Below are positions 43,536 through 59,762 of a DNA stretch of 59,762 nucleotides, one piece after another. Position numbers and translations under genes: made by a program. The notes beneath the pieces were generated by a model. The model was not told where the DNA came from. It saw only the letters and a list, made by a program, of their open reading frames with translations, and searched no databases. Each line of letters opens with the position of its first letter. The first letter of the stretch is position 1. The stretch comes from Gemmatimonadales bacterium (GTDB lineage Bacteria > Gemmatimonadota > Gemmatimonadetes > Gemmatimonadales > GWC2-71-9): NCBI GenBank assembly GCA_031404115.1, contig JANNGX010000021.1, positions 1 through 59,762 of the forward strand. The letters run 5' to 3'.

Positions 43536-45935
43536 ATGACGACGGTTCGCGAGTCCTTCGAATCAATGGCCTGGGGCCCGGCGCCGGAATCGGCCGCGAC
43601 CGCCGAGGCGTGGCTCGAGCAACACGGCAGGTCGTTGGGGAATTACATCGGTGGAGGTTGGACCGCCCCAGGGGCCGAGGGATTCGATACGATCAATCCG
43701 GCCGATGGCACGAGACTCGCGCGGGTGACCGCCGGGAGCACATCGGACGTCGACGCCGCAGTGGCCGCGGCGCGCGCGGCGCAAGCGGAGTGGTGGGCGC
43801 TGGGCGGACATGGCCGGGCCCGCTGGCTGTATGCGCTGGCGCGCCAGATTCAGCGCAACAGCCGGCTCTTTTCCGTCGTGGAGACTCTGGACAACGGCAA
43901 GCCGATCCGCGAGTCGCGCGACATCGATATTCCGCTGGTCGCGCGGCATTTCTACCATCATGCGGGCTGGGCCCAGCTCATGGACACCGAGCTCCCGGGG
44001 TACGGTCCGGTCGGCGTGGTGGGACAGATCATTCCCTGGAATTTTCCGCTGCTCATGCTGGCGTGGAAAATCGCGCCGGCGCTCGCGATGGGGAACACGG
44101 TGGTGCTCAAGCCGGCGGAGTTCACCTCGCTCACCGCGCTGCTCTTCGCGGACTGCTGCCATGCCATTGGATTGCCGCCCGGCGTCGTCAACATCATCAC
44201 CGGGGACGGCCGCACCGGTGCTGCGCTGGTGGACCATCCGGATGTGGACAAAATCGCCTTCACCGGCTCCACCGAAGTAGGGCGGATTATTCGCATCGCC
44301 ACGGCCGGCAGTGGCAAGAAGCTCTCGCTCGAGCTGGGCGGCAAATCGCCCTTCATCGTCTTCGAGGACGCCGATCTCGACAGTGTGGTCGAGGGCGTGG
44401 TGGACGCGATCTGGTTCAACCAGGGCCAGGTCTGCTGCGCCGGCTCCCGCATCCTGGCGCAGGAGAGCATCGCCACTCGACTGGTCGAGAAGCTCCGCGC
44501 CCGGATGGAGACGCTGCGAATCGGTAACCCGCTCGACAAGGCGGTGGACATCGGGGCCATCGTGGCGCCGGTGCAGCTCGAGATCATCCAGGGGCTGGTG
44601 CAGAAGGGCATCGACGAAGGCGCCACGTGCTGGCAGCCGAGCTGGAGCGTGCCCAAGGAAGGACTGTTTTATCCGCCGACGCTGTTCACCGACGTCACCC
44701 CCGCCGCGACGATTGCGCAGGTGGAGATCTTCGGGCCCGTCGTGGTGCTCATGACGTTCCGGACCCCGGCCGAGTCGGTCGAGATCGCCAACAACACCCG
44801 CTACGGCCTGGCCGCGAGCGTGTGGAGCGAGAATCTCAACACCGCCCTGGATATCGCCCCGCAGCTCAAGGCCGGCACCGTGTGGGTCAACTGCACCAAC
44901 ATGTTCGACGCGGCGAGCGGGTTCGGCGGATACCGGGAGTCGGGGTACGGACGGGAAGGCGGGAAAGAGGGGCTGTGGGAGTATGTGCGGCGGGAGGGCC
45001 ACCGGACGGACGGGACGGACAGCGTGGGCGGTGAGGGCGGGGGCTTTCCGTCCCCACTGTCCTCGCTGTCCGCCCCACCCTCGCTGTCCGCCCTCCCCGC
45101 CATCGATCGAACTGCGAAGCTCTACATCGGCGGCAAGCAAACCCGCCCCGACTCGGGCTACTCCATACCTATCCTCGACGCAGCCGGCGCGACGGTCGGC
45201 GACGTGGGCCGAGGGAACCGCAAGGACATCCGGAACGCGGTCGAGGCAGCCCACAAGGCCGAGGCGGGGTGGGGCACCGCGTCGGCGCACAACCGGGCCC
45301 AGGTGCTGTACTACATCGCGGAGAACCTCGCGATCCGGGAGCGGGAGTTCGTCGACCGCCTGTCCTCACTGTCCTCACCGTCCTCCCTGGCGGAGGTCGC
45401 GGCCGCCATCCAGCGCGCCTTTGCCTACGCCGCGTGGGCCGACAAGTATGATGGACGGGTCCACTCCACACCGTTCCGCAATGTCACGCTGGCCATGAAC
45501 GAGCCGATCGGGGTGATGGGGCTCATCGCGCCTGCCGAGGCCCCGCTGCTCGGCTTCCTTTCGCTGGTGCTCCCGGCGGTCGCCATGGGCAACTGCGTCG
45601 TCGCGGTTCCATCGGAGCGGTGGCCCCTGCTCGCCACCGATCTGTATCAGGTGCTGGACACGTCCGATGTTCCGGGGGGCGTGATCAACATCGTGACCGG
45701 AAGCCGCAAGGAGCTGGCCCCGGTGCTGGCGGCGCACGACGACGTGGATGCCGTCTGGTTCTACGGACCGCGCGAAGAAGCAGCCGAGGTGGAGAAGCTC
45801 TCGGCTGGCAACATGAAGCGGTGCAAAGTTGAGTGGAGCAAGACAAACTGGCTGGACCGCCGCGAGGCCGAGGGCGAAGAGTTCCTCCGCGAAGCCACGC
45901 AGGTCAAGAACATCTGGGTGCCCTACGGCGCCTGA
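43536..45935 (+). CDS. Aldehyde dehydrogenase fused to a second, catalytically truncated ALDH-like domain
   Basis: First ~480 aa are a complete ALDH: WNFPLLMLAWKIAPALAMGNTVVLKPAE, catalytic ELGGKSP and QGQVCCAGSR. A low-complexity linker follows (DGTDSVGGEGGGFPSPLSSLSAPPSLSALP). Then comes a ~290-aa ALDH-like NAD-binding portion with no Cys/Glu catalytic motifs. The ATG lies 1 nt after the deoC stop. Confidence 0.75.
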   Translation: MTTVRESFESMAWGPAPESAATAEAWLEQHGRSLGNYIGGGWTAPGAEGFDTINPADGTRLARVTAGSTSDVDAAVAAARAAQAEWWALGGHGRARWLYALARQIQRNSRLFSVVETLDNGKPIRESRDIDIPLVARHFYHHAGWAQLMDTELPGYGPVGVVGQIIPWNFPLLMLAWKIAPALAMGNTVVLKPAEFTSLTALLFADCCHAIGLPPGVVNIITGDGRTGAALVDHPDVDKIAFTGSTEVGRIIRIATAGSGKKLSLELGGKSPFIVFEDADLDSVVEGVVDAIWFNQGQVCCAGSRILAQESIATRLVEKLRARMETLRIGNPLDKAVDIGAIVAPVQLEIIQGLVQKGIDEGATCWQPSWSVPKEGLFYPPTLFTDVTPAATIAQVEIFGPVVVLMTFRTPAESVEIANNTRYGLAASVWSENLNTALDIAPQLKAGTVWVNCTNMFDAASGFGGYRESGYGREGGKEGLWEYVRREGHRTDGTDSVGGEGGGFPSPLSSLSAPPSLSALPAIDRTAKLYIGGKQTRPDSGYSIPILDAAGATVGDVGRGNRKDIRNAVEAAHKAEAGWGTASAHNRAQVLYYIAENLAIREREFVDRLSSLSSPSSLAEVAAAIQRAFAYAAWADKYDGRVHSTPFRNVTLAMNEPIGVMGLIAPAEAPLLGFLSLVLPAVAMGNCVVAVPSERWPLLATDLYQVLDTSDVPGGVINIVTGSRKELAPVLAAHDDVDAVWFYGPREEAAEVEKLSAGNMKRCKVEWSKTNWLDRREAEGEEFLREATQVKNIWVPYGA

Positions 45936-48894
45936 GACTCCCCAGGACCCAACGCCCAAGCGCGCCCGGCCGGAAACATCCCCTACCAGGCGGGATGGAC
46001 GGCCGGCGCGGCGGCAGTCTTCACTGCTCCGACTGAGCGCCGCAATCGCTTCGGCTCAGACTGAGTCGGAGGTCTGCCTGGCCGTCGTGGATGGCCTGCA
46101 CGATGAGGCCCTCGGCTACGATTTTCTTGGGCTCTTCCTGCTCGACCCCGCCAGTGGCGACCGGGTGCTTCATGCCAGCGTCGGCTGGGCCGACATTCCC
46201 ATCCACATGCGGGTCCCTCCGGGCCAGGGCTTGAGCGACCGGCCCACTCGGGATCGCCTGCTCCGCTACACCGCCGATGTAACTCGAGAGGAGGGGTACG
46301 TCTCCAGTCTCAACAGCGGCTCCGAAGTGGACGTGCCGCTGCTCACCGGGAACGACGTGCTCGGAGTCCTGGTGGTCGAGAGCCGGGAACGGGGCGCGTT
46401 CGGTCCGGCAGACTTCGAGATTCTCACCGCGGCGGCGCAACACGCGAGTATCGCGATTGCCCGAGTCCGGCTGCTCGAGGAACAGCGGCGGCTCGTCGCC
46501 GAGGAACGCCGCCGGGCCGACGAACGGGAGGCGTTGCTCGCCACCATTACCGATCTCTCGTCCGAACTCGAGCTCTCCCGCCTGCTCCACGCCGTCCTGG
46601 CTCGGGCGGTGACGCTTTTGGGCTCCGCGGGAGGCGAGCTGGCCATTCACGACGAGGCGAAGGGCGACCTGGTCATCGCCGCGAACCACAACATGCGAGA
46701 GAGCTCCATTGGTACCCGGCTCAGGCTGGGGGAAGGCGCGATGGGACGCGTGGTACAGACCGGCGAGCAGATGATCATTCCCGACTACCAGGCCTGGGCG
46801 GGGCGTTCCGGCCAGTATGCCGCGATCGATGCCCATGCCGTCGTGGTGGCACCCTTGCTCATCGGCGGCCGACCAGTGGGGGCGATCAACGTCTGGCACG
46901 AGGACCCGTCCCGGAGCTTCGCCGCCGCCGACCAGCAGCTCCTCAGCCTCTTCGGCCAGCAGGCGGCCATCGCCCTCGAGAATGCCCGGCTGTACACCGC
47001 GGCGCAGCGGGAGCGCAGCTACTTCGAGGTGCTGGTCCGGAATAGCCCGGTGGCGATCGTGGCGCTCGACCTCGAACACAGAATCCTCTCCTGCAACCCG
47101 GCCTTCGAACGCCTGTACGGGTACCGCCAGACCGAGGTGGTCGGGCGGGACCTCGACGAGCTGATCACCACGTCGGAAACGCGGTCCGAGGCGGTGGGAT
47201 ACAGCCGTCAGGCCCTCGATGATCAGCCGGTGCAGGTGATCACCAAGCGACGCCGCAAGGATGGGAGTCTCGTGGACGTTGAGGTCCTTGCCGTGCCGGT
47301 GGTCATCGGGGGAGAACGCATTGGCCTGATGGGCCTCTATCACGACGTGACCGAGCTGCTCGCCGCGCGCAAGGCGTCGGAGGCGGCCAATCACGCCAAG
47401 AGCCAGTTCCTGGCCAGCATGAGTCACGAGCTGCGCACCCCGCTCAACGCTATCATCGGCTACAGCGAGATGCTCGAGGAAGAGGCCGCCGAGCGGGGTC
47501 ACGACAGCTACGTCCCCGATCTCCAGAAGATCCGATCCGCGGGGCGGCATCTGCTCGCTCTGATCAACGATGTGCTCGATCTTTCCAAGATCGAGGCCGG
47601 CAAGATGGAGCTGCATCTCGAGACGTTCGAGCTTCGGCCCGCCATCGACGCCGTCGCCGCGACCGTGGCACCACTCATCGAGAAGAACAACAACACGCTC
47701 GCGCTGGACCTCGCCGCCACCATCGGCGTCATGCGCGCCGATGTCACCCGGGTCCGGCAGGTGCTGTTCAACCTCCTGTCCAATGCCAGCAAGTTCACCG
47801 AGCACGGCACCATCACCCTGCGCGCACACCGGGAATCGGGAGTCGCGGGCGATACCATCCTCCTGACCGTGGAGGACACCGGGATCGGCATGACGCCGGA
47901 GCAGCTCGGTCGCCTCTTCCAGGCATTTTCCCAGGCCGAGGCCTCGACCGCGAGCAAATACGGTGGCACCGGGCTGGGGCTTGCAATCAGCCGCAAGATC
48001 TGCGAGATGATGGGCGGCGAGATTACCGTGGCCAGCACGCCAGGACAGGGAACCGCCTTTACCGTGCGGCTGCCGGCCGAGGTCCGCGAGCCGGGCGAGC
48101 CGGTCCTCCCCGTGCCTCTCAGGCCGGCTGGCGGGGCGGGAACGGTGCTGGTGATCGACGACGATCCCGCGGCGCGGCAGCTGGTGGCCCGGATGCTGAA
48201 CAAGGATGGGTTCCGGGTGCTCGAAGCCGCGAACGGCCGGGAGGGCCTTCGCCTGGCAGGTACGGAACGACCCGATGTGATCACCCTTGACGTGCTCATG
48301 CCGGAGCTCGATGGATGGGGTGTGCTGTCGGCGCTCAAGAGCGATCCGCTGCTGGCCTCGATCCCGGTGGTCATGCTCACGATCACCGACCAGCGCAATC
48401 TGGGATTCTCGCTCGGGGCTACCGAGTATCTGACCAAACCGATCGAACGGGCCCAGCTTTCCGCGGTGCTCGCGCGCTATCGTCGCCCGGCGGGAGCAAG
48501 CGTCCTCCTCGTCGAGGACGATCCCGCGACGCGCGCCGTGTTGCGCCGCTCGCTGGAAAAGGAAGGCTGGCGGGTGACCGAGGCCGAGAACGGCCGGGTT
48601 GGCCTCGAGCGGGTCGCGACGGACCGCCCCGCGCTGGTGCTCCTCGACCTGATGATGCCCGAGATGGACGGCTTTCAGTTTCTCGAGGGCCTGCGCTCGT
48701 GGAAGCCGGCGGACGCCCCGGCCGTCGTGGTCATTACCGCCAAGGACCTGACCGACGACGATCGGCGGCGACTCAACGGCGCGGTGCGCGACGTGGTGCA
48801 GAAAGGATCGCAGGAAATCGACTTGCTGCTCGAGGACGTCCGCCTCCGGGTTACCGCCCACCTCCGCCGTTCCGTCCTGGATATCCCCGCGTGA
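45829..48894 (+). CDS. Soluble hybrid sensor histidine kinase 1 (GAF-GAF-PAS-HisKA-HATPase_c-REC-REC)
   Basis: H-box [16 protein letters not shown] (His codon 47425-47427), N-box [26 protein letters not shown]. Two receivers (VLVIDDD...TLDVLMP...TKP and LLVEDD...LLDLMMP...QKG). No TM segments. The start is uncertain, see findings: the only canonical in-frame start upstream of the conserved N-terminus is TTG 45829. Confidence 0.8.
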   Translation: MSGARQTGWTAARPRAKSSSAKPRRSRTSGCPTAPETPQDPTPKRARPETSPTRRDGRPARRQSSLLRLSAAIASAQTESEVCLAVVDGLHDEALGYDFLGLFLLDPASGDRVLHASVGWADIPIHMRVPPGQGLSDRPTRDRLLRYTADVTREEGYVSSLNSGSEVDVPLLTGNDVLGVLVVESRERGAFGPADFEILTAAAQHASIAIARVRLLEEQRRLVAEERRRADEREALLATITDLSSELELSRLLHAVLARAVTLLGSAGGELAIHDEAKGDLVIAANHNMRESSIGTRLRLGEGAMGRVVQTGEQMIIPDYQAWAGRSGQYAAIDAHAVVVAPLLIGGRPVGAINVWHEDPSRSFAAADQQLLSLFGQQAAIALENARLYTAAQRERSYFEVLVRNSPVAIVALDLEHRILSCNPAFERLYGYRQTEVVGRDLDELITTSETRSEAVGYSRQALDDQPVQVITKRRRKDGSLVDVEVLAVPVVIGGERIGLMGLYHDVTELLAARKASEAANHAKSQFLASMSHELRTPLNAIIGYSEMLEEEAAERGHDSYVPDLQKIRSAGRHLLALINDVLDLSKIEAGKMELHLETFELRPAIDAVAATVAPLIEKNNNTLALDLAATIGVMRADVTRVRQVLFNLLSNASKFTEHGTITLRAHRESGVAGDTILLTVEDTGIGMTPEQLGRLFQAFSQAEASTASKYGGTGLGLAISRKICEMMGGEITVASTPGQGTAFTVRLPAEVREPGEPVLPVPLRPAGGAGTVLVIDDDPAARQLVARMLNKDGFRVLEAANGREGLRLAGTERPDVITLDVLMPELDGWGVLSALKSDPLLASIPVVMLTITDQRNLGFSLGATEYLTKPIERAQLSAVLARYRRPAGASVLLVEDDPATRAVLRRSLEKEGWRVTEAENGRVGLERVATDRPALVLLDLMMPEMDGFQFLEGLRSWKPADAPAVVVITAKDLTDDDRRRLNGAVRDVVQKGSQEIDLLLEDVRLRVTAHLRRSVLDIPA

Positions 48895-51800
48895 CGCCGG
48901 CTGGCACCGAGCCATCCCACGACCGTCATCGAGAGGCGGCGCTCCTGCGATTGAGCACCGGCATCGCGGCCGCGGAGACCGAACGGGACATCAGCCAGGC
49001 CGTCGTCGTTGGGCTGCAGGACGTGGCGCTCGGGTTCGATTTCGTCGCGGTACTGCTGGTAGACTCCGAGACCGGCGACCGGGTGGTGATCGCGAGCCGC
49101 GGCTGGGAGGGCGCGCCGCCCGGGCTCCGGGTCCGGCCCGGCCAGGGGCTGAGCGAGCTGCCCCTGCTCGACGGGCGGCTCCACTACACGCCCCAGGTCA
49201 CCCACGACACCCGCTATCTCCCGACCCGCAACGAGGGGTCGGAGGTGGACGTGCCCCTCCTCATCAACAAGCAGCTCGTTGGGGTACTCGTGGTGGAAAG
49301 CAACCGGCACCACGGGTTCGGGACGGACGACTTCGAGGTGCTTCGAGCCGCGGCTAATCAGGCCGGAATTGCCATTGGCCGGGCCCGACTGCTGGCCGCT
49401 GAGCGACGCCGCGCCGACGAGCAGGAAGCGCTCCGGGCGACAATGGCAGACCTTTCCGCCCGGCTGGAGCTCCCCGATCTGCTGCAGGCCGTGCTCGAAC
49501 GGGCCATCCAGCTCCTCCGGGTGAGCCATGGCGAGCTCGCGATCTACGACTCCGAACGCGAGCAGCTCGAGATCGTCGCGAGCTACAACCTCGGCAGGAA
49601 GGACACCACCGGCACCCGCATGCGAGTCGGGGAGGGTGCGATGGGGCACGTCGCCCTGACGCGCGAGCCGTTCATTATTCCCGATTACCAGGCCTGGGCC
49701 TCGCGCTCCGAGCAGTACTCGCAGTCCGCCTTTCACGCGGTCATGGTCGCCCCGCTTCTCATGGGGCGGCAACTCGTGGGTGCCATCGCCTTCATGGACC
49801 AGAACGAGGCGCGCCGGTTCGGCCCGGACGATCTCCGCCTCCTCGATCTGTTCGTCCCCCAGGCCGCCGTCGCCATCGAGAACGCCCGGCTTTTCACGGT
49901 CGAGCATCGCCGAGCCGAGGAACAACAGGCGCTGCTCGACACGATGAAGGATCTGGCCGGCCAGCTCGAGCTCTCCAAGGTGCTGCAGCGGGTGCTGGAA
50001 CGCGCGGTCGCGCTGCTCACGGTCACCGGGGGCGAGCTCGCCACCTGGGACACCGAGTCCGGGGACCTGGTCATCGTCGCCAGCCACGACATGGGCACCG
50101 ACGCGGTCGGCACCCGGATCGCGCTGGGCGACGGCGCCATGGGGCGCGTGGCCGAGACCCGCGAGTCCCTCATCATTCCGCGCTACCAGGAGTGGGATGG
50201 ACGCTCCTCCAAATACACCCAGAGCACCGTGCAGTCGGTGATGGCCGCGCCGCTGCTCATCGGAAACCGGCTGGTGGGTACCATCGCCAGCGTCCATTCC
50301 GATCCGGGCCGCGAGTTCGGAGCGGAGGATCTGCGGTTGCTCGAGCTATTCGCGCCAGAGGCGGCCATCGCCATCGAGAACGCGCGGCTGTTCACCCAGG
50401 CCCAGCACCAGCAGCAATACTTCGGCGAGCTGGTTGCCAACAGCCCGGTCGCTATTGTCACGCTCGACACCAGCCACATCGTGACCTCGTGCAACCCGGC
50501 CTTCCTGGCGCTCTACGGCTACAACGAGCCGGAAGTTCTCGGCCAGCACCTCGACGACCTGATCACCACCGAGGAGACCCGGGCCCAGGCGGTGCAGTAC
50601 ACCGCGCAAGCGCTCGACCACCGGCCGGTGCGCGCCATCGCACAGCGTCGCCGCAAGGATGGGAGCCTGGTGGACGTGGAGGTGCTGGGAGTGCCCGTGG
50701 TCGTGGAGGGCACGCTGGTCGGCATGATGGGCCTGTATCATGACATCACGGAGCTGCTGAAGGCGCGGCGGGAAGCGGAGCTGGCCAATACCGCCAAGAG
50801 CCAGTTCCTGGCGAGCATGAGCCACGAGCTGCGTACCCCCCTGAACGCCATCATCGGGTACAGCGAGCTGCTCGAAGAGGACGCCGTCGAACGGGGGCAG
50901 CCCGACTCGGTGGCCGATTTGCAGAAGATCCGCGCCGCGGGCCGCCATCTGCTCGCGCTGATCAACGACGTGCTCGATCTGTCCAAGATCGAGGCGGGCA
51001 AGATGGAGCTCCACCTCGAGACCTTCGCGCTTGGCCCCGCCATCGAGGCCGTGGCGGCGACCGTCGCCCCGCTCATCGAGAAGAACGGCAATGCACTCCG
51101 GCTCGAGCTTGCCGACGGGCTTGGCGCGATGCGAGCCGACGTGACCCGGGTTCGCCAGGTGCTGTTCAACCTGCTGTCCAATGCGAGCAAGTTCACCGAG
51201 CGCGGCACCATCACCCTCGCCGCGTACCGGGAGCCGGCGGCCGGCGGCGACACCATCCGCATCACCGTCCGGGACACCGGGATCGGCATGACCCCGGAGC
51301 AGCTCGGCCGGCTCTTTCAGGCGTTCTCTCAGGCCGAGGCATCCACCTCCAGCAAGTATGGCGGGACCGGCCTCGGACTCGCCATCAGCCGCATGTTCTG
51401 CGAAATGATGGGCGGCGACATCGCCGTGGCCAGCGCGCCGGGTGAGGGCACAGCGTTCACCGTCCGGCTTCCCGCCGAGGTGCGCGAGCCGCACGATGCC
51501 GCGAGCGCGCCGGCAGCCCCCGGCGAGCACAGCGGCGCCGGCACCGTGCTCGTGGTCGATGACGACCCCGCCGCGCGCGACTTGCTGGCGCGGATGCTTG
51601 GCAAGGAAGGCTTCCGGGTCCTGCAAGCGGCCAACGGCGAGGACGGCATCCGCCTCGCTCGAGCGGAGCACCCCGATGTGATCACGCTCGATGTGCTCAT
51701 GCCGGGACTCGATGGCTGGGGCGTGCTCGCCGCCCTCAAGGACGACCCCGCGCTCGCGGCCATTCCGGTGGTGATGCTTACCGTGACCGACGAGCGCACC

Positions 51801-52280
51801 CTGGGCTTCGCGCTGGGCGCGACGGAGTACCTGACCAAGCCGATCGAGCGCGCCCGGCTATCCGCGGTGCTGGCGCGCTACCGTCGCGCCCCGGGTTCCG
51901 GGGTCCTGATTGTGGAAGACGACGCCGACACCCGCGCGGTGCTGCGTCGCTCGCTGGAAAAAGAAGGGTGGCGCGTGACGGAGGCGGAGAACGGGCGGGT
52001 GGGGCTCGAGCGAGTCCACGCGGAACAGCCCTCCCTGGTTCTGCTCGATCTCATGATGCCGGAAATGGACGGCTTCGAATTTCTCGATGGGCTCCGGGCC
52101 GGGTCCGCCGCCGGCGCACCCGATGTGATTGTCATCACCGCGAAGGAGCTGACCGAGGACGATCGGCGGCGACTGAGCGGAGGGGTTTCGCGTGTGTTGC
52201 AGAAGGGTGGGCAGCGCGGCGAGGACCTCGTCGCCGAGGTCCGTCATTGCGTGGCGGCGCGGGCCGGTGGGCGCCGATGA
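48891..52280 (+). CDS. Soluble hybrid sensor histidine kinase 2 (GAF-GAF-GAF-PAS-HisKA-HATPase_c-REC-REC)
   Basis: The GTG at 48891 overlaps the HK1 stop (GTGA). His codon 50823-50825 lies in [16 protein letters not shown]. Same motifs as HK1, plus one extra ~168-aa GAF module. Track ORF 48315..52280 is trimmed. Confidence 0.8.
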
Positions 52281-55159
52281 CCCGGAAATCGAATGGTCAC
52301 GCCGCCCGCCGGCAGGCCGCGCTGCTCCGGCTCTCGGCCGAAATCGCCGCGGCGCCCGATGAGGGAGAGGTCTGCCGCGCAGTCGTCAACGGGCTTCGCG
52401 ACCCGGCCCTCGGGTATGTCTTTCTGGGATTGTTTCTGCTGGATGACGCCACCGGCGATCGGGTGCTCCAGGCCAGCGTGGGATGGCCCGACGCTCCGAC
52501 CGGTTGGCGGGTCCACCCCGGACAAGGACTGAGCGAGCGTCCGCTGCAGGACGGCAAGCTGCACTACACCCCCGATGTCACCCGCGAGGCGGGCTACCTC
52601 CCCAGCCTGAACAGCGGCTCCGAAGTGGATGTGCCGCTCGTGATGGGGAAGACGGTGTTCGGCGTGCTCGTGGTGGAGAGCACCGAGCCGGACGCCTTCA
52701 CCGGAAACGATCTCGAGATTCTCACCGCGGCCGCTACGCAGGCCAGCATCGCGATCGGGCGAGCGCGCTCCCTCGCCGCGGAGCGACGGCGCGCCGACGA
52801 GCAGCAGGCGCTTCTCGATACCCTGGCCGATCTCTCGGGCGAGCTCGAACTCAGCAAGCTGCTCCAGGCGGTGCTTCGGCGGGCTACCACCCTCCTCGGC
52901 GTGAGCGGCGGCGAGCTCGCGATCTACGATGAGGTGCATAAGGAGCTCGAGATCGTCGCCAGCCTGCATATCGGGGTGGACTCCACCGGGACCCGCCTTG
53001 GTCTCGGCGAGGGAGCGATGGGCCACGTGGCGACGACCCAGGAGCCGATCTGCATTGCGGAATACCAGGAATGGCTGGGCCGGTCGGGGAAGTATTCCGG
53101 CGTCGAGGTCCACTCGGTCATGGCGGCGCCGCTGCTCATCGGGCACCGCCTGGTGGGCGCGTTTGCCTGCGTTCACGATGATCCTGCCCGGAAGTTCGGC
53201 CCCGACGATTTGCGCCTGCTCAACTTGTTCGCACCCCAGGCCGCGGTCGCCATCGAGAACGCGCGGCTGTACACCGCCGCCCAGCGACAGAAACAGTATT
53301 TCGAGGAGCTCGTCCTCAACAGTCCCGTGGCGATCGTCACACTCGATACCCGGCACGACATCGTCTCGTGCAATCCGGCGTTCGAGCAGCTGTACGGGTA
53401 CGAGCAGGACGAGGTCACCGGGCGTAACCTCGACGAGCTCATCTCGACGGCCACCACGCGCTCGGAAGCGGTGGCCATCACGCAGCACGTCCTCCAGGAA
53501 GGCGCCATGCGGAGCATCGGCCGCCGCCGGCGCAAGGACGGTACGCTGGTGGATGTGGAAGTCCTCGGGGTGCCGGTCCTGGTGGAGGGCAAGCTGGTGG
53601 GACTGATGGGGCTCTACCACGACATCACCGAGCTCGCGCGCGCGCGGCAGGCGGCCGAAGCCGCCAACAGCGCGAAGAGCCAGTTCCTCGCGAACATGAG
53701 TCACGAGCTTCGCACGCCGCTCAACGCCATCATCGGGTACAGCGAGATGCTCGAGGAGGAAGTCGCCGACATCGGGCACACCGAGCTGGCGCCCGATCTC
53801 CGCAAGATCCGCTCGGCGGGGCGGCACCTCCTGGCCCTGATCAACGACATCCTCGACCTCTCCAAGATCGAGGCCGGCAAAACGGAACTCTTCCTCGAGG
53901 ACTTCGAGATCGGTGCCATGGTGGAGGACGTCGCCACGACGATCCGGCCGCTGGTGGAGAAGAACGCCAACCGGCTGGTCGTCCGCGTGGAGGCGGCCGG
54001 CACGATGCGCGGCGACCTTACCAAGGTCCGCCAGATGCTGCTCAATCTGCTCTCGAATGCGTGCAAATTCGCCGACCACGGAACGATCACGCTGGACATC
54101 GTGCGCGGCCCTGGCGCAGAGGGGGCGGAAGAGATTCGCTTTGTGGTGTCGGACTCGGGCATCGGCATGACGCCGGCGCAGACGGCGCGGCTCTTCGAGG
54201 CGTTCTCCCAGGCCGAAACGTCCACCAGCAAGAAGTACGGAGGAACCGGGCTCGGCCTCGCCATCACGCGACAGTTTGCCCGGATGATGGGGGGAGACGT
54301 GACCGTGGAGAGCGAGCCGGGCCGGGGCTCCAGCTTCACCATCCGGCTCCCGGCAACCACCGCGGCGCCGGCGGAAGCGGGTGAAGGCGCGGAGGGCTCC
54401 GGCCGCGCCGGGACGGTGCTGGTCATCGACGACAGCGTGCAGGCCCGCGAGCTCATCCGGCGCTTCCTGGTCGATGACGGTTTCCGGGTCGTGGAAGCCG
54501 CGAGCGGCGAAGCGGGCCTCGAGCTGGCGCGCCGGGAGCCACCCGACGCCATCACCCTCGACGTCCTCATGCCCGGCATGGATGGGTGGGCAGTACTCGC
54601 GGCGCTCAAGGCCGACCCGTTGCTCGCCGGCATTCCGGTGATCATGCTGACGATGCTTGACGACCGGAGTCTCGGGCTGGCGCTCGGCGCCACCGATTTC
54701 ATGACCAAGCCCATCGATCGGGAGCGACTCCGCGCTTTGCTCGCGCGCTACCGGCGGAACGGTTCGGGCGATGTGCTCGTGGTCGAGGACGATCCCGGCA
54801 CCCGGGAGCTGCTGCGCCGCCAATTGGAAGCGGACGGGTGGTCGGTCACCGAGGCGGAGAACGGCAGGGCGGGGCTCGCCGCCGTCGAGCGCACCATGCC
54901 GTCGCTCATCCTCCTCGACCTCATGATGCCGGTCATGGATGGATGCCAGTTTGCCGCGGAGCTCCGGAAACGGGAAGCATGGCGTGGGATCCCGGTCATC
55001 GTCATTACCGCGAAAGATCTGACGTCGGAAGATCGCCGCGCGCTCAACGGAGATGTGCAGGGCGTCCTGCAGAAGGGTGCCTTCGGTCGCGAGGAGCTGT
55101 TGCGCGAGATTCACCACCTGATGGGCCCGGCGGTCGCCGGGCCCCAGCACGGGAGGTAG
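52277..55159 (+). CDS. Soluble hybrid sensor histidine kinase 3 (GAF-GAF-PAS-HisKA-HATPase_c-REC-REC)
   Basis: The ATG at 52277 overlaps the HK2 stop (ATGA). His codon 53702-53704 lies in [42 protein letters not shown], and two receivers. Confidence 0.85.
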
Positions 55160-55162
55160 CGT

Positions 55163-55534
55163 ATGCCGAAGATTCTCCTGGTGGAAGACAATGAGATGAA
55201 TCGCGACATGCTTTCGCGTCGCCTGCAGCGGAAGGGGTTCGAGGTCGTGCTTGCGGTGGATGGCCTGCAGGGCGTGGCCATGGCGACGGCCGGCGGGTAC
55301 GACCTCATCCTGATGGACATGAGCCTCCCCGAGCTCGACGGCTGGGAGGCCACCCGCCGCGTGCGGGAAGCCGAAACCGGACCCCGGGTGCCGATCATCG
55401 CGTTGACCGCCCACGCGATGTCAGGCGACCGTGAGAAGGCCATGGCCGCCGGCTGCGACGACTACGACACCAAGCCGGTGGAGCTGGAACGGCTGCTCGG
55501 GAAGATTCAAGCCCTGCTTGGGAAGCAGGCATGA
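55163..55534 (+). CDS. Single-domain CheY-like response regulator
   Basis: MPKILLVEDNEMNRDML...DLILMDMSLPELDG...IIALTAHAM...YDTKP. GGGAGG lies upstream, inside the end of HK3. The ATG lies 3 nt after the HK3 stop. Confidence 0.9.
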   Translation: MPKILLVEDNEMNRDMLSRRLQRKGFEVVLAVDGLQGVAMATAGGYDLILMDMSLPELDGWEATRRVREAETGPRVPIIALTAHAMSGDREKAMAAGCDDYDTKPVELERLLGKIQALLGKQA

Positions 55535-57444
55535 CCGGGCTCACCACGCCCGAGGCCGTCGCCGAGCTCCGCCACGAGCTACGTACGCCGCTCAACCTCA
55601 TTATCGGCTACTGCGAGATGCTGCTCGAGGATGCGACCGACGCCGGGCAGCGCGGCGCGCTGGAACAAACCCTCGCGGCGGGCCGCGATGTCCTCGAGCG
55701 GATCAACGCGTCGGTCCCGCCGTCGCGGGGGGAAATCAGCGAAGCGGACTTTGCCGCGCTCCGCCACGCCCTGCGGGAGCCGCAGGGGCGCATCGTCATC
55801 GCGACCACCGCGCTGCTCGCCGCGGACCCGATCGATCCCCAGTTCGAGCGGGATGTGCGGCGGATTCGCAGCTCGGCCGAGCGGCTGCTCACCGTCGAGC
55901 TCCCGTCCGGCCGAAGCGCGAATCATGTGGCCGTGACCGTCGAGCATCCGGCGGCGGGTGCCGTCGCAGTCCCGCCGGTGCAGCCGGCGCACATCCTCGT
56001 GGTGGACGACCAGGAAGACAACCGGGCCGTGCTGGAGCGGCGGCTTCGACGTCAGGGCCACACCATTGAATCCGCCTCGGGCGGCCTTTCCGCGCTCGAG
56101 ATGCTGGGGCGGGAGCGGTTCGATCTCGTGCTGCTCGATGTGCTCATGCCCGATCTCGACGGCCTGGCCGTCCTCGAACGGATAAACGCCGACCAGAACA
56201 CCCGCGACATCCCGGTCATCATGATTTCGGCGCTCGACGACGTCGGCAGCGTCGTGCGCTGCATCGAGCGGGGGGCCGAGGACCATCTGTCCAAGCCGTT
56301 CGATCCGGTGCTGCTCCGGGCCCGAATCGGCGCCTGCCTCGAGAAGAAGCGGCTCCGCGACGTCGAGCTCGAGTACCTCCGCGAGGTCGGGCGAGTCATC
56401 CAGGCGGCCACCGCGGTCGAGGCGGGGAGTTACCAGCAGGGCGCGCTCGCCCAGGTGGCGCAGCGGGGCGACGAGCTCGGGCGGCTGGCCCGGGTGTTCG
56501 ACGGCATGGCCAATCAGGTACGGGCCCGCGAGGACCGGCTCAAGGAGCAGGTCGTGGCCCTGCGGCGGGAGATTGGCGAGGCGAGACAGACCACCCGCCA
56601 GTCCGTACCGCACGGGGTACTCAGCCTGCTCACCGGTGAGCTCTTCGCCGGGAGATTCGAGGTCCTCGAGGAAATCGGCAGCGGCGGCATGGGCATGGTC
56701 TACCGCGCGCTCGACCGTGAACTGGGCGACCAGGTTGCCATCAAGACCCTCCGTCCCGAGCTGCTGCAGGACCCCACGCTGCTGGAGCGGTTCAAGTCCG
56801 AGATCCGCCTGGCCCGGCACATCTCGAGCAAGCATGTCGTCCGGACCCACGACATCGGGGAGCGCGACGGCGTCTACTATTTGACGATGGAGTACGTCGA
56901 GGGCATCACGGTCCGGGAGCTGCTCGATACCCGCGGGCGACTTGGCACCGCGCCGACCCTTGCCATCGCGAGCCAGCTGGCCCAGTCGCTGGTGGCCGCC
57001 CATGAACAGGGAGTCATTCACCGGGACATCAAGCCGCAGAACCTCCTCCTCGATGGGGCCGGCGTGCTCAAGGTGATGGACTTCGGCGTGGCGCGCCTGG
57101 CCGGGGGGAACGCCAACCTCACCGAGGCGGGCATGGTGGTGGGCACGCCGTCGTACATGGCGCCGGAGCAGATGCTGGGAGAGAGCGTCGACGAGCGGAC
57201 CGATCTGTATGCGGTGGGGGTGGTGCTCTTCGAGTGCCTCCTGGGACGGCTGCCCTTCGAGGCCGGGTCCGCCATCGCGCTGATCGCAAGGGTATTGCGC
57301 GATCAGCCTCCCGTGCCCGCGGCGCTCGATCCGGAGATCCCGCCCGCGCTCTCCGAGCTGGTGGTGCGGCTCCTTGCGAAGGATCCGGCGCAGCGGCCCG
57401 CGAATGCCACCGAGCTGGCGCGGCTCCTCTCCGATCTCTCCTGA
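55531..57444 (+). CDS. Fusion protein: ATPase-less H-box (DHp/HisKA-like) region + receiver + HAMP-like helix + Hanks Ser/Thr kinase
   Basis: The ATG overlaps the RR stop (ATGA 55531-55534). aa 12-30: [19 protein letters not shown] (His15, codon 55573-55575). aa 154-272 is REC: VVDDQED, LLDVLMPDLDG with Asp203 (codon 56137-56139), and SKP. aa ~313-345: DELGRLARVFDGMANQVRAREDRL. aa 376-637 is the kinase: GSGGMGMVY, VAIKTL, HRDIKPQNLLL, DFGVARL, GTPSYMAPEQ. I see no N/G1/G2 ATP-lid motifs. Confidence 0.85.
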   Translation: MTGLTTPEAVAELRHELRTPLNLIIGYCEMLLEDATDAGQRGALEQTLAAGRDVLERINASVPPSRGEISEADFAALRHALREPQGRIVIATTALLAADPIDPQFERDVRRIRSSAERLLTVELPSGRSANHVAVTVEHPAAGAVAVPPVQPAHILVVDDQEDNRAVLERRLRRQGHTIESASGGLSALEMLGRERFDLVLLDVLMPDLDGLAVLERINADQNTRDIPVIMISALDDVGSVVRCIERGAEDHLSKPFDPVLLRARIGACLEKKRLRDVELEYLREVGRVIQAATAVEAGSYQQGALAQVAQRGDELGRLARVFDGMANQVRAREDRLKEQVVALRREIGEARQTTRQSVPHGVLSLLTGELFAGRFEVLEEIGSGGMGMVYRALDRELGDQVAIKTLRPELLQDPTLLERFKSEIRLARHISSKHVVRTHDIGERDGVYYLTMEYVEGITVRELLDTRGRLGTAPTLAIASQLAQSLVAAHEQGVIHRDIKPQNLLLDGAGVLKVMDFGVARLAGGNANLTEAGMVVGTPSYMAPEQMLGESVDERTDLYAVGVVLFECLLGRLPFEAGSAIALIARVLRDQPPVPAALDPEIPPALSELVVRLLAKDPAQRPANATELARLLSDLS

Positions 57445-57603: not shown

Positions 57604-59762
57604 ATGGTGCATAGCACCGCACGATTCTTCCGCACCCTCCCCATTCCAGTCCCCTTGCGAGCCGCAACCGGGACATTAGCGCTTGTCCTCGTCAGTTTCC
57701 TTGCGACCTGCAAGCAGAATGATCTGACCGGCCCGCTCGCCACGGGTCCGGCTGCGAAGCTCACGATCACGACCCAGCCCTCGGCCTCGGCGGCGAGCGG
57801 GGTCGGGTTTGCCCAGCAGCCGGTAATCCAGCTCCAGGACGCGGCGGGCAAGCCGGTCAATCAGGTGGGCGTGGTGCTGACGGCCGCGATCGCCACGGGC
57901 GGCGGTACGCTGGGCGGCACGCTCACGGCGACCACCAACGCCAGTGGGGCGGCGACCTTCTTCGATCTATCCATTACCGGCACGGCGGGCGATCGAACCC
58001 TGAACTTCTTGGCGCCGGCGCTGGCGGGCGCAACTTCGAATACGATCGCCATCAGCGTCGGTGCGGCCACCAGCCTTACGATCACCACCCAGCCTTCGGC
58101 CTTGGCCGCGAGTGGTGTCCTTCTGAATCAGCAGCCGGTGCTCCAGCTGCTCGACGCGGCCGGGAACGCCGTGAACCAGGCGGGCGTGGGCGTTACCGCA
58201 ACCATCGCCTCGGGCGGTGGCACGCTGGGCGGAACGACGACCGTGCTGACGAATGCCGCTGGCGTGGCGACCTTCACGGACCTGTCGATTAACGGCGTCA
58301 TCGGGGATCGGCTGTTGAACTTCAGCGCCACCTCGCTCATCGGCGTCACCTCGAGCACGATCACCCTCTCCCCGGGGGCAGCGACCCAGCTCACGATCAC
58401 CACCCAGCCCTCGGCCTCGGCGGCGAGTGGGGTCGGGTTCGCCCTGCAGCCGGTGCTCCAGCTGCGCGACGCTGCGGGCAACGCGGTCAGCCAGCTGGGC
58501 CATACCGTGACGGCGGTGATCGCTACCGGTGGGGGCACCCTGAACGGGGCGACCAGCGTGGTGACGAATGCCAGCGGCGTAGCGACCTTCGCCGGCCTCT
58601 CCATTACCGGGACGATCGGCGATCGCACCCTCAGCTTCGGCGTCCCGTTACTGACCGGGGCGACTTCCAGCACGATCACCCTCACGCCCGGCGCAGCCAC
58701 CCAACTCACGATCACGACCCAGCCCTCAAGCTCGGCCGCCAGCGGTGTCGTCTTGCCCCAACAGCCGGTGCTCCAGCTGCGGGACGCCGCCGGCAATGCG
58801 GTCAGCCAGTTGGGGACCGTGGTAACAGCCGCGATCGCCACCGGCGTCGGCACGCTGGGCGGCACGCTCACGGCGAGCACCAACGCCAGCGGCGTGGCGG
58901 CCTTCACCAGCCTGACCATCACCGGTAGCACCGGGAGCCGGACCCTGAATTTCAGCGCCCCGGCAGTGGCGGGGGCCACCTCAGGTACGATCACCATCAC
59001 GGCGGGCGGAGCCACCCAGCTGACGCTCACGACCCAGCCTTCGGCCTCGGCAGCGAGTAGCGCCGTCTTTGCCCAACAGCCGGTGCTCCAACTCCGGGAC
59101 GCGGCGGGGAACGCCGTGAACCAGGCGGGCGTCGGCGTTACCGCCACCATCGCCACGGGCGGCGGGACGCTCGGCGGCACGCTGATAGCCACCACGAACG
59201 CCGCTGGGGTAGCGACCTTCACGGACCTGTCGATGACCGGCGACATCTCGAATCGGACGCTGAGCTTCAGTGCAACCGGGGCCACCGGTGTCACCTCGGG
59301 CGCTGTCAACATCACGCCGGGCGCGGCGACCCAAGTCACGATCATCACCCAGCCCTCGGCCTCGGCGGCGAGCGGGGTCGGGTTCGCCCAGCAGCCGGTG
59401 CTCCAGCTGCGCGACGCTGCGGGCAACGCGGTCAGCGTGGCAGGCCATACCGTGACGGCGGTGATCGCGACCGGCGGGGGCACGCTGGGAGGGGCGACCA
59501 GCGTGGTGACGAATGCCAGCGGTGTGGCGACCTTCGGTGGTCTCTCCATTGCCGGCACGATCGGCGATCGCACCCTCAGCTTCAGCGTCCCGTCGCTGAC
59601 CGGGGCGACTTCCACTACGATCACCATCGCGCCTGGCGCAGCCACCCAGCTCACGATCACCAGTCAGCCTTCAAGCGCGGCAGCAAGCGGTGTCGTCCTG
59701 CCCCAACAGCCCGTGCTCCAGTTGCGGGACGCCGCCGGCAATGCGGTCAGCCAGTTGGGGAC
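57604..59762 (+). CDS. Lipoprotein with tandem 105-aa bacterial Ig-like (Big_1/invasin-like) repeats, 3' end beyond window
   Basis: I hand-translated all 719 codons from ATG 57604 and found no stop. The N-terminus is MVHSTARFFRTLPIPVPLRAATGTLALVLVSFLATC (lipobox LATC). At least 7 repeats follow, of the form LTITTQPSASAASGV..QQPVLQLRDAAGNAV...TA.IATGGGTLGG....TNASGVATF..LSITG..GDRTL.F. It is absent from the ORF track because it has no stop in the window. Confidence 0.8.
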   Translation, partial: MVHSTARFFRTLPIPVPLRAATGTLALVLVSFLATCKQNDLTGPLATGPAAKLTITTQPSASAASGVGFAQQPVIQLQDAAGKPVNQVGVVLTAAIATGGGTLGGTLTATTNASGAATFFDLSITGTAGDRTLNFLAPALAGATSNTIAISVGAATSLTITTQPSALAASGVLLNQQPVLQLLDAAGNAVNQAGVGVTATIASGGGTLGGTTTVLTNAAGVATFTDLSINGVIGDRLLNFSATSLIGVTSSTITLSPGAATQLTITTQPSASAASGVGFALQPVLQLRDAAGNAVSQLGHTVTAVIATGGGTLNGATSVVTNASGVATFAGLSITGTIGDRTLSFGVPLLTGATSSTITLTPGAATQLTITTQPSSSAASGVVLPQQPVLQLRDAAGNAVSQLGTVVTAAIATGVGTLGGTLTASTNASGVAAFTSLTITGSTGSRTLNFSAPAVAGATSGTITITAGGATQLTLTTQPSASAASSAVFAQQPVLQLRDAAGNAVNQAGVGVTATIATGGGTLGGTLIATTNAAGVATFTDLSMTGDISNRTLSFSATGATGVTSGAVNITPGAATQVTIITQPSASAASGVGFAQQPVLQLRDAAGNAVSVAGHTVTAVIATGGGTLGGATSVVTNASGVATFGGLSIAGTIGDRTLSFSVPSLTGATSTTITIAPGAATQLTITSQPSSAAASGVVLPQQPVLQLRDAAGNAVSQLG
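57760..59762 (+). repeat. In-frame tandem repeat, unit 315 nt, with 945-nt (three-unit) higher-order periodicity
   Basis: Unit starts (CTCACGATCAC-like) fall at 57760, 58075, 58390, 58705, 59020, 59335 and 59650, exactly 315 nt apart. Units 3 and 6, and units 4 and 7, are near-identical at nucleotide level. Units 2 and 5 share AGVGVTATIA. Units 1, 4 and 7 share VV.TAAIATG. Confidence 0.9.

Follow-up and report, generated by a model that had tools for sequence, protein, structure and literature searches.

A tandem DHp module fused to a receiver and a Hanks-type Ser/Thr kinase in Gemmatimonadota, a candidate phosphorelay end-piece

In bacteria, most of the known cross-talk between two-component and Hanks-type signaling consists of kinases that phosphorylate response regulators. 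The last gene of a signaling operon from a Gemmatimonadales bacterium raises the question of whether the signal might run the other way, from a His-Asp relay to a Ser/Thr kinase, and of what a histidine-bearing segment without an ATPase domain would contribute. The operon lies in a 59,762-nucleotide stretch of DNA (contig JANNGX010000021.1) that was analysed as a whole and that we call the window. The gene is a single plus-strand ORF that starts with ATG and encodes a protein 637 aa long (Table 1). The original prediction, made from the sequence alone, had described one polypeptide with exactly these ends, in which an H-box region lacking an ATPase is joined to a receiver, a HAMP-like helix, and a Ser/Thr kinase. 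A check of the domain boundaries with Pfam returned HisKA, Response_reg, and Pkinase, with HAMP below its cut-off and HATPase_c absent. More than 120 sequence clusters consist of single proteins of 626-646 aa with a Pfam set identical to that of the window protein, and the one-ORF form is present in about 30 species-level genomes. With hundreds of single-ORF homologues, a fusion created by misassembly is ruled out. In one MAG (L012) there is a split copy of the gene, probably caused by a frameshift. Residue invariance was scored in an alignment of 23 homologues that are 70-92% identical to the window protein, and every receiver, kinase, and His15 H-box residue named in the original prediction is invariant in it.

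Table 1. Features of the five-gene operon and of the protein encoded by its last gene.
Feature	Coordinates	Strand	Basis
Hybrid histidine kinase 1 (HK1), GAF-PAS-HisKA-HATPase_c-REC-REC	45829..48894	+	Pfam; start codon uncertain
Hybrid histidine kinase 2 (HK2), GAF x3-PAS-HisKA-HATPase_c-REC-REC	48891..52280	+	Pfam; GTG overlaps HK1 stop
Hybrid histidine kinase 3 (HK3), GAF-PAS-HisKA-HATPase_c-REC-REC	52277..55159	+	Pfam; ATG overlaps HK2 stop
Stand-alone DivK-like receiver, 123 aa	55163..55534	+	Response_reg, 92.7 bits; TGA overlaps ATG of the kinase gene (ATGA)
Whole gene, [DHp-DHp*]-linker-REC-coiled coil/HAMP-Ser/Thr kinase	55531..57444	+	ORF, Pfam domains, full-length homologues
DHp copy 1 (aa 7-61), live H-box helix 1 and helix 2	55549..55713	+	HisKA match, likeness to GacS/RetS DHp
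DHp copy 2, degenerate (aa 67-121), relic H-box, well conserved last helix	55729..55893	+	hhalign, z-scores, helices
Flexible linker (aa 122-152)	55894..55986	+	Low pLDDT, column identity
Receiver domain (aa 153-270), phospho-acceptor Asp203 (codon 56137-56139)	55987..56340	+	Response_reg, invariant active-site residues
Alpha5 continuation helix, HAMP-like unit, signalling helix to aa 354	56341..56592	+	HAMP score, predicted helices
Hanks-type Ser/Thr kinase domain (aa 376-624), RD kinase	56656..57402	+	Pkinase profile, Foldseek, invariant motifs

The five genes form a translationally coupled operon in which the [2xDHp]-REC-kinase gene is last; the junctions are stop/start overlaps (GTGA and ATGA) plus one 3-nt gap. 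There is no canonical in-frame start for HK1 between 45829 and 46087, and a scan 3' of the kinase gene found no terminator or promoter. The stand-alone receiver matches DivK (1m5t) with an E value of 1.9e-24. All cross-pairs among the eight receivers of the operon are 24-40% identical, so that a guess at the phospho-donor from identity is uninformative. According to Pfam, none of the operon proteins contains an Hpt domain.

The N-terminal region of the window protein matches HisKA (PF00512) at aa 9-59, scoring 48.6 bits where the cut-off is 26.9, and this first DHp copy aligns to the DHp domains of GacS and RetS. In its H-box, HELRTPLN, the residues His15 (codon 55573-55575), E16, T19, P20, and N22 are invariant in the 23 homologues, in agreement with the H-box that had been predicted at His15. 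Helix 1 of this copy is the best conserved segment of the protein, with a mean column identity of 97% and 19 of 28 positions invariant, compared to 88% for the receiver, 84% for the kinase, and 57% for the linker. This helix is also almost the same in sequence as helix 1 of the kinases in the operon, suggesting that the same receiver could dock on both. The H-E-x-x-T beside His15 doubles as the HisKA phosphatase motif.

The catalytic domain expected of a sensor histidine kinase, HATPase_c with its N, G1, F, and G2 boxes, is absent from the window protein. There is no Pfam match to HATPase_c in the 637 aa even at E<=1, none of the more than 120 homologues carries PF02518, and aa 1-155 contain no D.G.G, G.G.G, or N-box strings, only helices and a disordered linker. 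The claim that the ATP lid is missing was thus borne out. We also considered a degenerate HATPase_c in aa 60-150 and ruled it out, since this segment has no profile match and no lid motifs and consists of two helices and a disordered linker.

Comparison of the two halves of the N-terminal module with hhalign gave a probability of 88.9% (E 2.4e-6) over 54 columns in register. The second half resembles the canonical DHp domain of HK3 (z=7.0, a score attained by 0 of 500 shuffles) and the second copy at locus L033 (z=8.3), where two intact HisKA copies precede the receiver. Judged by these sequence comparisons, the DHp hairpin has been duplicated in tandem to give the N-terminal 125 aa, which are not a broken histidine kinase. 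The second H-box-like helix noted in the original prediction is a real DHp-derived helix, but it belongs to a decayed copy. Its relic H-box reads [RY][HDN][AS][LF]REPQ, and position 79, a His in the window protein, is D, N, S, or another residue in the 23 homologues. Because His79 is not conserved, it is ruled out as a second phospho-acceptor. In the alphaproteobacterial versions with a cyclase output the pattern is reversed, with the His gone from copy 1 and kept in copy 2. The two types have decayed in opposite copies, so that one live His is kept either way.

In the structure model, aa 1-121 form four helices (7-34, 38-61, 71-96, and 103-121) and aa 126-150 are disordered, with pLDDT below 50. 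The monomer prediction for the N-terminal module is a closed four-helix bundle (pLDDT 93.3, pTM 0.85). The module is thus predicted to be a single-chain bundle, unlike an ordinary dimerising DHp; this being a monomer prediction, a domain-swapped dimer might take its place. Foldseek with this model returned only up-down four-helix bundles, among them single-chain ROP, and the best matches were generic (TM 0.5-0.59, E at least 0.02). No Hpt domain (PF01627) was detected in the window protein by Pfam, PDB sequence matches, or Foldseek. There is likewise no CA-like alpha/beta domain of the Spo0B/ChpT type, and neither Spo0B nor ChpT was matched by sequence or fold. Homology of the bundle to Hpt, Spo0B, or ChpT was not detected by sequence profile or Foldseek, and the nearest solved sequences to the module are histidine-kinase DHp domains. 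The decay of copy 2 and the absence of an ATPase could mean that the N-terminus is an inert remnant, left behind when a hybrid kinase shed its ATPase and serving at most as a dimerisation handle. We find this highly improbable, since helix 1 is so well conserved, the module is kept with differing outputs across phyla, and the bundle is modelled as closed and not as an open dimerisation hairpin.

The receiver and the kinase are both intact. The receiver (Response_reg, PF00072, aa 155-266) scores 98.5 bits, its best NCBIfam match is of the PleD type, and D159, D160, D203, S233, and K255 are invariant in the 23 homologues; the earlier description of it as complete therefore stands. HAMP (PF00672) at aa 284-331 scores 20.5 bits, under the cut-off of 25. 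Homologues score 21-27 bits, with L032 exceeding the cut-off at 26.9, and precomputed Pfam annotation places PF00672 in several of them. The HAMP-like unit consists of AS1 at about 284-298, a connector, and an AS2-like string, DELGRLARVFDGMANQV, at 314-330, and is flanked in the model by long helices at 259-298 and 315-354. This is consistent with the HAMP-like and coiled-coil linker proposed earlier, with a profile score that is borderline. The kinase domain (Pkinase, PF00069, aa 376-624) scores 175.6 bits (E 1.7e-51). Every Hanks catalytic motif is invariant in the 23 homologues (G383/G385/G388, K405, E424, H497-R498-D499, N504, D517-F518-G519, and T539-P540..P545-E546), as expected from the prediction of a fully equipped kinase, and so are Thr531 and Thr539 of the activation loop. 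The top Foldseek matches of the kinase are the kinase domains of PknA, PknB, and Stk1, and a search with the full-length model returned kinase domains alone.

From these features we infer a route by which the window protein would act as the last response regulator in a phosphorelay encoded by a five-gene operon, with the Hanks-type Ser/Thr kinase as its output. The operon kinases would autophosphorylate and pass the phosphoryl group to a receiver, most simply the stand-alone receiver and possibly the kinases' own receivers as well. From there it would return to a histidine, His15, the sole phosphorylatable one in a tandem-DHp bundle acting like an Hpt domain, and then move in cis to Asp203. 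We consider the stand-alone receiver the more likely immediate partner of His15. Once phosphorylated, Asp203 would signal along the alpha5 helix, HAMP-like unit, and signalling helix and favour a dimer arrangement in which the kinase domains become active, probably including phosphorylation of the activation loop at Thr531 and Thr539, and the active kinase would then phosphorylate its substrates. We give an even chance to this scheme, in which His15 is a built-in transfer station between a phosphorylated receiver and Asp203, and Asp203~P turns the kinase on via the coiled coil and HAMP.

We examined whether the arrangement is kept elsewhere. Where upstream sequence is available, the stand-alone receiver (63-95% identity) almost always directly precedes the homologue. 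Gemmatimonadota keep the gene order, with kinase(s) first, then the stand-alone receiver, then [2xDHp]-REC-output, and it recurs in MAGs labelled Rokubacteria, Verrucomicrobia, Gamma-, Alpha-, and Deltaproteobacteria, and Anaerolineae. About six phyla have the arrangement. The output is a Ser/Thr kinase in Gemmatimonadota, a class III cyclase in other phyla, or none. That [2xDHp]-REC also drives class III cyclases points to a portable cassette rather than an isolated fusion. At several loci the adjoining kinase is a plain one lacking a receiver. All of the H-box (His, acidic residue, Thr, Pro, and Asn) survives in the clade of the window protein and at almost every locus examined. The original prediction had proposed both that Asp phosphorylation gates the kinase and that the DHp serves as a transfer station, and both ideas are strengthened by the conservation of the operon, the lack of an Hpt domain in it, and the conservation of the His15 helix.

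Other observations from sequence count against a transfer station and would fit a different role. Two distant representatives of the kinase family at the 50% level (P0130 and P0135) keep the module and have no H-box His, and the bundle has no Hpt, Spo0B, or ChpT match. At five loci (L053, L054, L058, L069, and L072) the kinase and stand-alone-receiver pair adjoins a REC-cyclase or REC-PP2C that has no DHp module. The stand-alone receiver therefore needs no DHp partner there and direct kinase-to-REC transfer must be possible, which leaves room for a phosphatase or docking role of the module.

Phosphatase activity can persist in isolated HisKA DHp domains, and this favours a reading in which the module is a phosphatase or timer in cis. 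The kinases would phosphorylate Asp203 directly, perhaps with the stand-alone receiver in parallel, and the H-E-x-x-T of the DHp would dephosphorylate either one, setting the lifetime of the active kinase. The HELRT is invariant in the 23 homologues, the DHp-less pairs point to direct transfer in related systems, and Galperin et al. raised this possibility for HATPase-less HisKA proteins (PMC5847659). We nevertheless regard it as unlikely, as it leaves unexplained why decay can affect either copy yet always spares one intact His, and why the stand-alone receiver accompanies the module across phyla, even beside receiver-less kinases. Nor would it exclude a transferase role, given that PhyT does both (PMC5898713).

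The bundle might instead bind the phosphorylated stand-alone receiver without any chemistry and steer the receiver, HAMP, and kinase allosterically. The profile of the module also matches the DivL DHp (E 1.1e-4). Such docking would follow the DivL/DivK precedent (PMC4211667), and would suit the DivK-like character of the stand-alone receiver and the His-less modules of P0130 and P0135. We consider it quite unlikely because pure docking would not be expected to preserve a complete H-box so widely, in the clade of the window protein and at almost all loci examined; DivL itself has lost the His.

Tandem DHp modules may form an undescribed phosphotransfer class, which we propose tentatively and think somewhat doubtful: a single-chain pseudo-dimer in which one His is kept and either copy decays, used as a portable relay end-piece fused to a receiver for Hanks kinases in Gemmatimonadota or for class III cyclases in several other phyla. 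Histidine phosphotransfer would then have a third structural solution, in addition to the monomeric Hpt and the dimeric Spo0B/ChpT type, and the module would be an evolutionary link from DHp to Hpt-like bundles in which a monomeric bundle arose from a dimeric DHp. If it works as proposed, the protein turns the signal of a His-Asp relay directly into Ser/Thr phosphorylation, a hard-wired link that a whole, little-studied phylum has kept. Being small, soluble, and modular, the cassette lends itself to direct testing in vitro. Our literature search found no description of a HisKA-REC-Pkinase protein, a receiver-kinase fusion, or a tandem DHp, in line with the original prediction, in which no experimentally characterised protein of this architecture was known; REC-kinase fusions may be listed in Galperin 2006 and Perez 2008. 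A 2025 review of two-component/Hanks cross-talk (PMC12189002) describes a receiver-controlled Ser/Thr phosphatase; the word "fused" occurs nowhere in that review, and a receiver-controlled Hanks kinase is not mentioned in the passages drawn on here.

There are precedents for individual steps in Pak-SdrG-PhyT-PhyR (PMC5898713), in ChpT (PMC3433190), and, in those same passages, in the REC-controlled phosphatase PA3346 (PMC12189002). In the Spo0F-Spo0B-Spo0A relay of Bacillus and the CckA-ChpT-CtrA relay of Caulobacter (PMC3433190), the His of a kinase-inactive, DHp-derived bundle shuttles phosphoryl groups between two receivers, as proposed here, and in Bacillus a stand-alone receiver is likewise upstream of the bundle. 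Spo0B and ChpT are separate homodimers with a C-terminal CA-like domain, whereas the window module lacks that domain and is predicted to be one chain of two tandem hairpins fused to the receiver that it would serve. In Sphingomonas melonis several kinases feed the single-domain receiver SdrG, again as proposed here, and PhyT, which is histidine-kinase-like without kinase function, uses a conserved His to pass the phosphoryl group to the terminal regulator and also acts by sequestration and as a phosphatase (PMC5898713). PhyT differs in being a separate membrane protein without a tandem DHp, and the output of its relay is a sigma-factor mimic and not a Ser/Thr kinase. Monomeric Hpt domains (PF01627), such as those of ArcB, Ypd1, and LuxU, are also single-chain four-helix bundles with one exposed phospho-His between receivers. 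The window module shares no detectable homology with them and is HisKA by Pfam; it would be an independent route to an Hpt-like solution.

On the output side, HsbR/PA3346 of Pseudomonas aeruginosa, a REC-PP2C protein, resembles the window protein in that a receiver controls a Ser/Thr phospho-signaling enzyme below hybrid kinases; as described in the passages cited, it differs in its phosphatase output, its lack of an N-terminal DHp, and the separate Hpt protein HptB in its relay (PMC12189002). At L069 a protein of the same REC-PP2C architecture adjoins the same type of stand-alone receiver. With PknB, PknA, and Stk1 the kinase domain shares 32-36% identity, the fold, and all catalytic motifs, and like them it is an RD kinase with activation-loop Thr residues. 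Unlike them, the window protein has no transmembrane segment or PASTA domain and takes its input from a cytoplasmic receiver and not an extracellular sensor; the PASTA kinase equivalog (NF033483, PknB_PASTA_kin) matched the kinase domain alone, with 314 bits against a cut-off of 450. HstK of Anabaena (PMC2176072) also joins modules of both kinds, a Ser/Thr kinase, GAF, and a histidine kinase, in one polypeptide. HstK has its Ser/Thr kinase at the N-terminus and a complete histidine kinase, whereas the window protein lacks the ATPase and, if our reading is right, reverses the flow, from a His-Asp relay to a Ser/Thr kinase.

The last gene of the operon (see the table below) is a single reading frame at exactly the position originally predicted. 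With Pfam we found no HATPase_c domain in its protein, even at E≤1, and a direct motif scan of residues 1-155 returned no G1, G2 or N-box string, in agreement with the claim that the protein lacks an ATPase. Residue conservation was judged from an alignment of 23 homologues that are 70-92% identical. His15, E16, T19, P20 and N22 of the H-box, D159, D160, D203, S233 and K255 of the receiver, and the Gly loop, K405, E424, HRD, N504, DFG and TP..PE of the kinase are invariant in this alignment. The residues named in the original prediction are all among these except His79, the histidine of a proposed second H-box, which is replaced by D, N, S or others in homologues.

Features of the operon and of the protein encoded by its last gene
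Feature	Position	Strand	Details
HK1	start uncertain-48894	+	stop overlaps HK2 GTG (GTGA)
HK2	48891-52280	+	stop overlaps HK3 ATG (ATGA)
HK3	52277-55159	+	3-nt gap to next gene
Stand-alone receiver	55163-55534	+	TGA overlaps kinase-gene ATG
Kinase gene	55531-57444	+	ATG start, 637 aa; last of five genes
HisKA	aa 9-59		Pfam, 48.6 bits (cut-off 26.9)
Response_reg	aa 155-266		Pfam, 98.5 bits
HAMP	aa 284-331		Pfam, 20.5 bits, under cut-off 25
Pkinase	aa 376-624		Pfam, 175.6 bits, E 1.7e-51

More than 120 clusters of proteins 626-646 aa long have the same Pfam set, none with HATPase_c, and the homologue is one ORF in about 30 species-level genomes; together these rule out an assembly artefact. The named sources are MAGs of Gemmatimonadales or Gemmatimonadaceae, plus two Acidobacteriota-labelled MAGs, one labelled Vicinamibacterales (L015) and one Solibacteraceae (L020). 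Both of the latter contain full-length orthologues with the operon layout of the window, reflecting either horizontal transfer or mis-binning. At another related locus (L012, 1182-3257), the orthologue is broken into two adjoining ORFs where the receiver domain ends, probably by a frameshift in that MAG.

AlphaFold2 predicted, for the full protein, N-terminal helices at residues 7-34, 38-61, 71-96 and 103-121 followed by a disordered linker (126-150) ahead of the receiver. Residues 1-128 modeled by themselves (pLDDT 93.3, pTM 0.85) are confidently predicted to pack as a single-chain bundle. Foldseek with this module returned generic up-down four-helix bundles only (TM 0.5-0.59), engineered single-chain ROP among them. 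In sequence the module matches DHp domains, and there was no match to Hpt, Spo0B or ChpT. Profiles of the two halves aligned in register over 54 columns (hhalign, 88.9% probability, E 2.4e-6), and half 2 gave z=7.0 against the DHp of HK3 and z=8.3 against the second intact HisKA copy of a relative, with 0 of 500 shuffles reaching the score in either case. On these sequence comparisons, the two halves are homologous.

A protein from Anaerolineae (L033, 11206-12561) carries a tandem pair of fully intact HisKA copies (RHELRTPIN in each), followed by a receiver and with neither ATPase nor output domain; it looks like an undecayed form of the tandem module. Alphaproteobacterial versions have Gln in place of the copy 1 His and an intact copy 2, and copy 1 is kept and copy 2 decayed in the window's type and in versions from Rokubacteria, Verrucomicrobia and Gammaproteobacteria. 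From these relatives, the predicted second H-box is a genuine relic of a DHp copy and not a phosphorylation site. That the whole N-terminus is an inert leftover seems to us highly improbable; the helix carrying His15 is conserved more strongly than any other part of the protein (97% mean column identity, 19 of 28 positions invariant), followed by the last helix of the bundle (94%), the receiver (88%) and the kinase (84%).

The five genes of the operon are translationally coupled. HK1, HK2 and HK3 share the layout GAF-PAS-HisKA-HATPase_c-REC-REC, the stand-alone receiver resembles DivK (1m5t, E 1.9e-24), and none of the five proteins has a detectable Hpt domain. No canonical in-frame start (ATG, GTG, TTG) for HK1 occurs between 45829 and 46087, and with the TTG at 45829 as start its first ~107 nt would lie inside the aldehyde dehydrogenase gene before it (end 45935); HK1 may start elsewhere or carry a frameshift. 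In the 799-aa ORF of that gene (43536-45935), the Aldedh domain is limited to aa 42-485, and Pfam assigns nothing to the ~300 C-terminal residues. The gene downstream of the operon (57604-59762, +) runs off the end, has a lipoprotein-like signal start (…LVSFLATC), is built of repeated Ig-like units of ~100 aa each, and matches CarboxypepD_reg and Invasin_D3 weakly. Long minus-strand ORFs in this interval are shadows of the Ig-like repeats. In many related Gemmatimonadota loci, including L001 (11577-14267), L008, L012, L013, L014 and L022, a second Ser/Thr kinase of ~900 aa directly follows the orthologue, carrying TPR repeats in L001, the one scanned with Pfam; it is missing from that position in the window.

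Across 80 loci from species-representative genomes, the recurring gene order is one or more kinases, a stand-alone receiver, and the tandem module joined to a receiver and an output domain. Essentially every Gemmatimonadota locus with upstream sequence has a Ser/Thr kinase as the output. A class III cyclase domain takes its place behind the same module and receiver (40-49% identical) in Rokubacteria/Methylomirabilota, Verrucomicrobia, Gamma- and Alphaproteobacteria, and one deltaproteobacterial MAG and one from Anaerolineae have no output domain. The stand-alone receiver is ~70% identical across phyla and the DHp-CA region of the kinases ~60-70%, with kinase helix 1 almost invariant and nearly matching its counterpart in the tandem module. 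The DHp of the kinases in this operon (window 48891-55159) is nearly unchanged in loci from Gemmatimonadota, Rokubacteria, Cyanobacteria, Anaerolineae and Proteobacteria, suggesting that the interface between kinase and stand-alone receiver is very constrained. At several loci, the kinase next to the stand-alone receiver itself lacks a receiver domain. The REC-coil-kinase core occurs in ~10 representatives among the best 150 matches listed (50% clusters, 1.84 billion proteins), most of them with the N-terminal module; proteins with the kinase output thus seem to form a small family, found mostly in a single phylum.

The same pair of kinase and stand-alone receiver also precedes REC-cyclase, REC-PP2C or REC-PP2C-HATPase_c_2 proteins without a DHp module (L053, L054, L058, L069, L072), the last architecture, found at one locus, being HsbR-like. 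The DivK-like receivers there are 60-70% identical to the window's. Thus, pairing of the stand-alone receiver with a REC-enzyme is broader than the tandem-DHp cassette, and the stand-alone receiver has a role independent of the bundle.

The best-supported reading, to which we give an even chance, is a four-step relay with two steps built into the kinase-gene protein and the bundle as transfer station. Phosphate would pass from a kinase His to a receiver Asp, most simply that of the stand-alone receiver although the kinases' own receivers are possible, then to His15 of the bundle, and in cis to Asp203, whose phosphorylation would activate the Ser/Thr kinase. Unlikely by our estimate is that the bundle acts as a phosphatase; the H-E-x-x-T motif is compatible with this too, and both phosphotransfer and phosphatase roles have been raised for HATPase-less HisKA proteins in general (Galperin et al., PMC5847659). 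A DivL-like docking part (PMC4211667) is somewhat less probable again. The His is missing in two distant representatives of the kinase family, which speaks for docking and against the transfer station. For the output of the relay, helix alpha5 of the receiver continues as one long helix into the HAMP-like unit (AS2 DELGRLARVFDGMANQV), followed by a second long helix and ~20 poorly ordered residues ahead of the kinase. Judging by PknB-type kinases and by REC/HAMP signaling, the likeliest output step would be control through dimer geometry or proximity, then activation-loop phosphorylation of this RD kinase.

Our literature search turned up no account of HisKA-REC-Pkinase proteins, of tandem DHp bundles or of Hanks kinases under receiver control. 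The parts are all of known kinds. Three things about their arrangement appear new: DHp is predicted to form a single-chain pseudo-dimer, this pseudo-dimer is fused to the receiver that it would serve, and the output is a Hanks kinase. The proposed relay follows the logic of Spo0F/Spo0B/Spo0A and has a close parallel in Pak -> SdrG -> PhyT -> PhyR, where a single-domain receiver hands its phosphate to an HK-like protein, which delivers it through a conserved His to the terminal regulator (PMC5898713).
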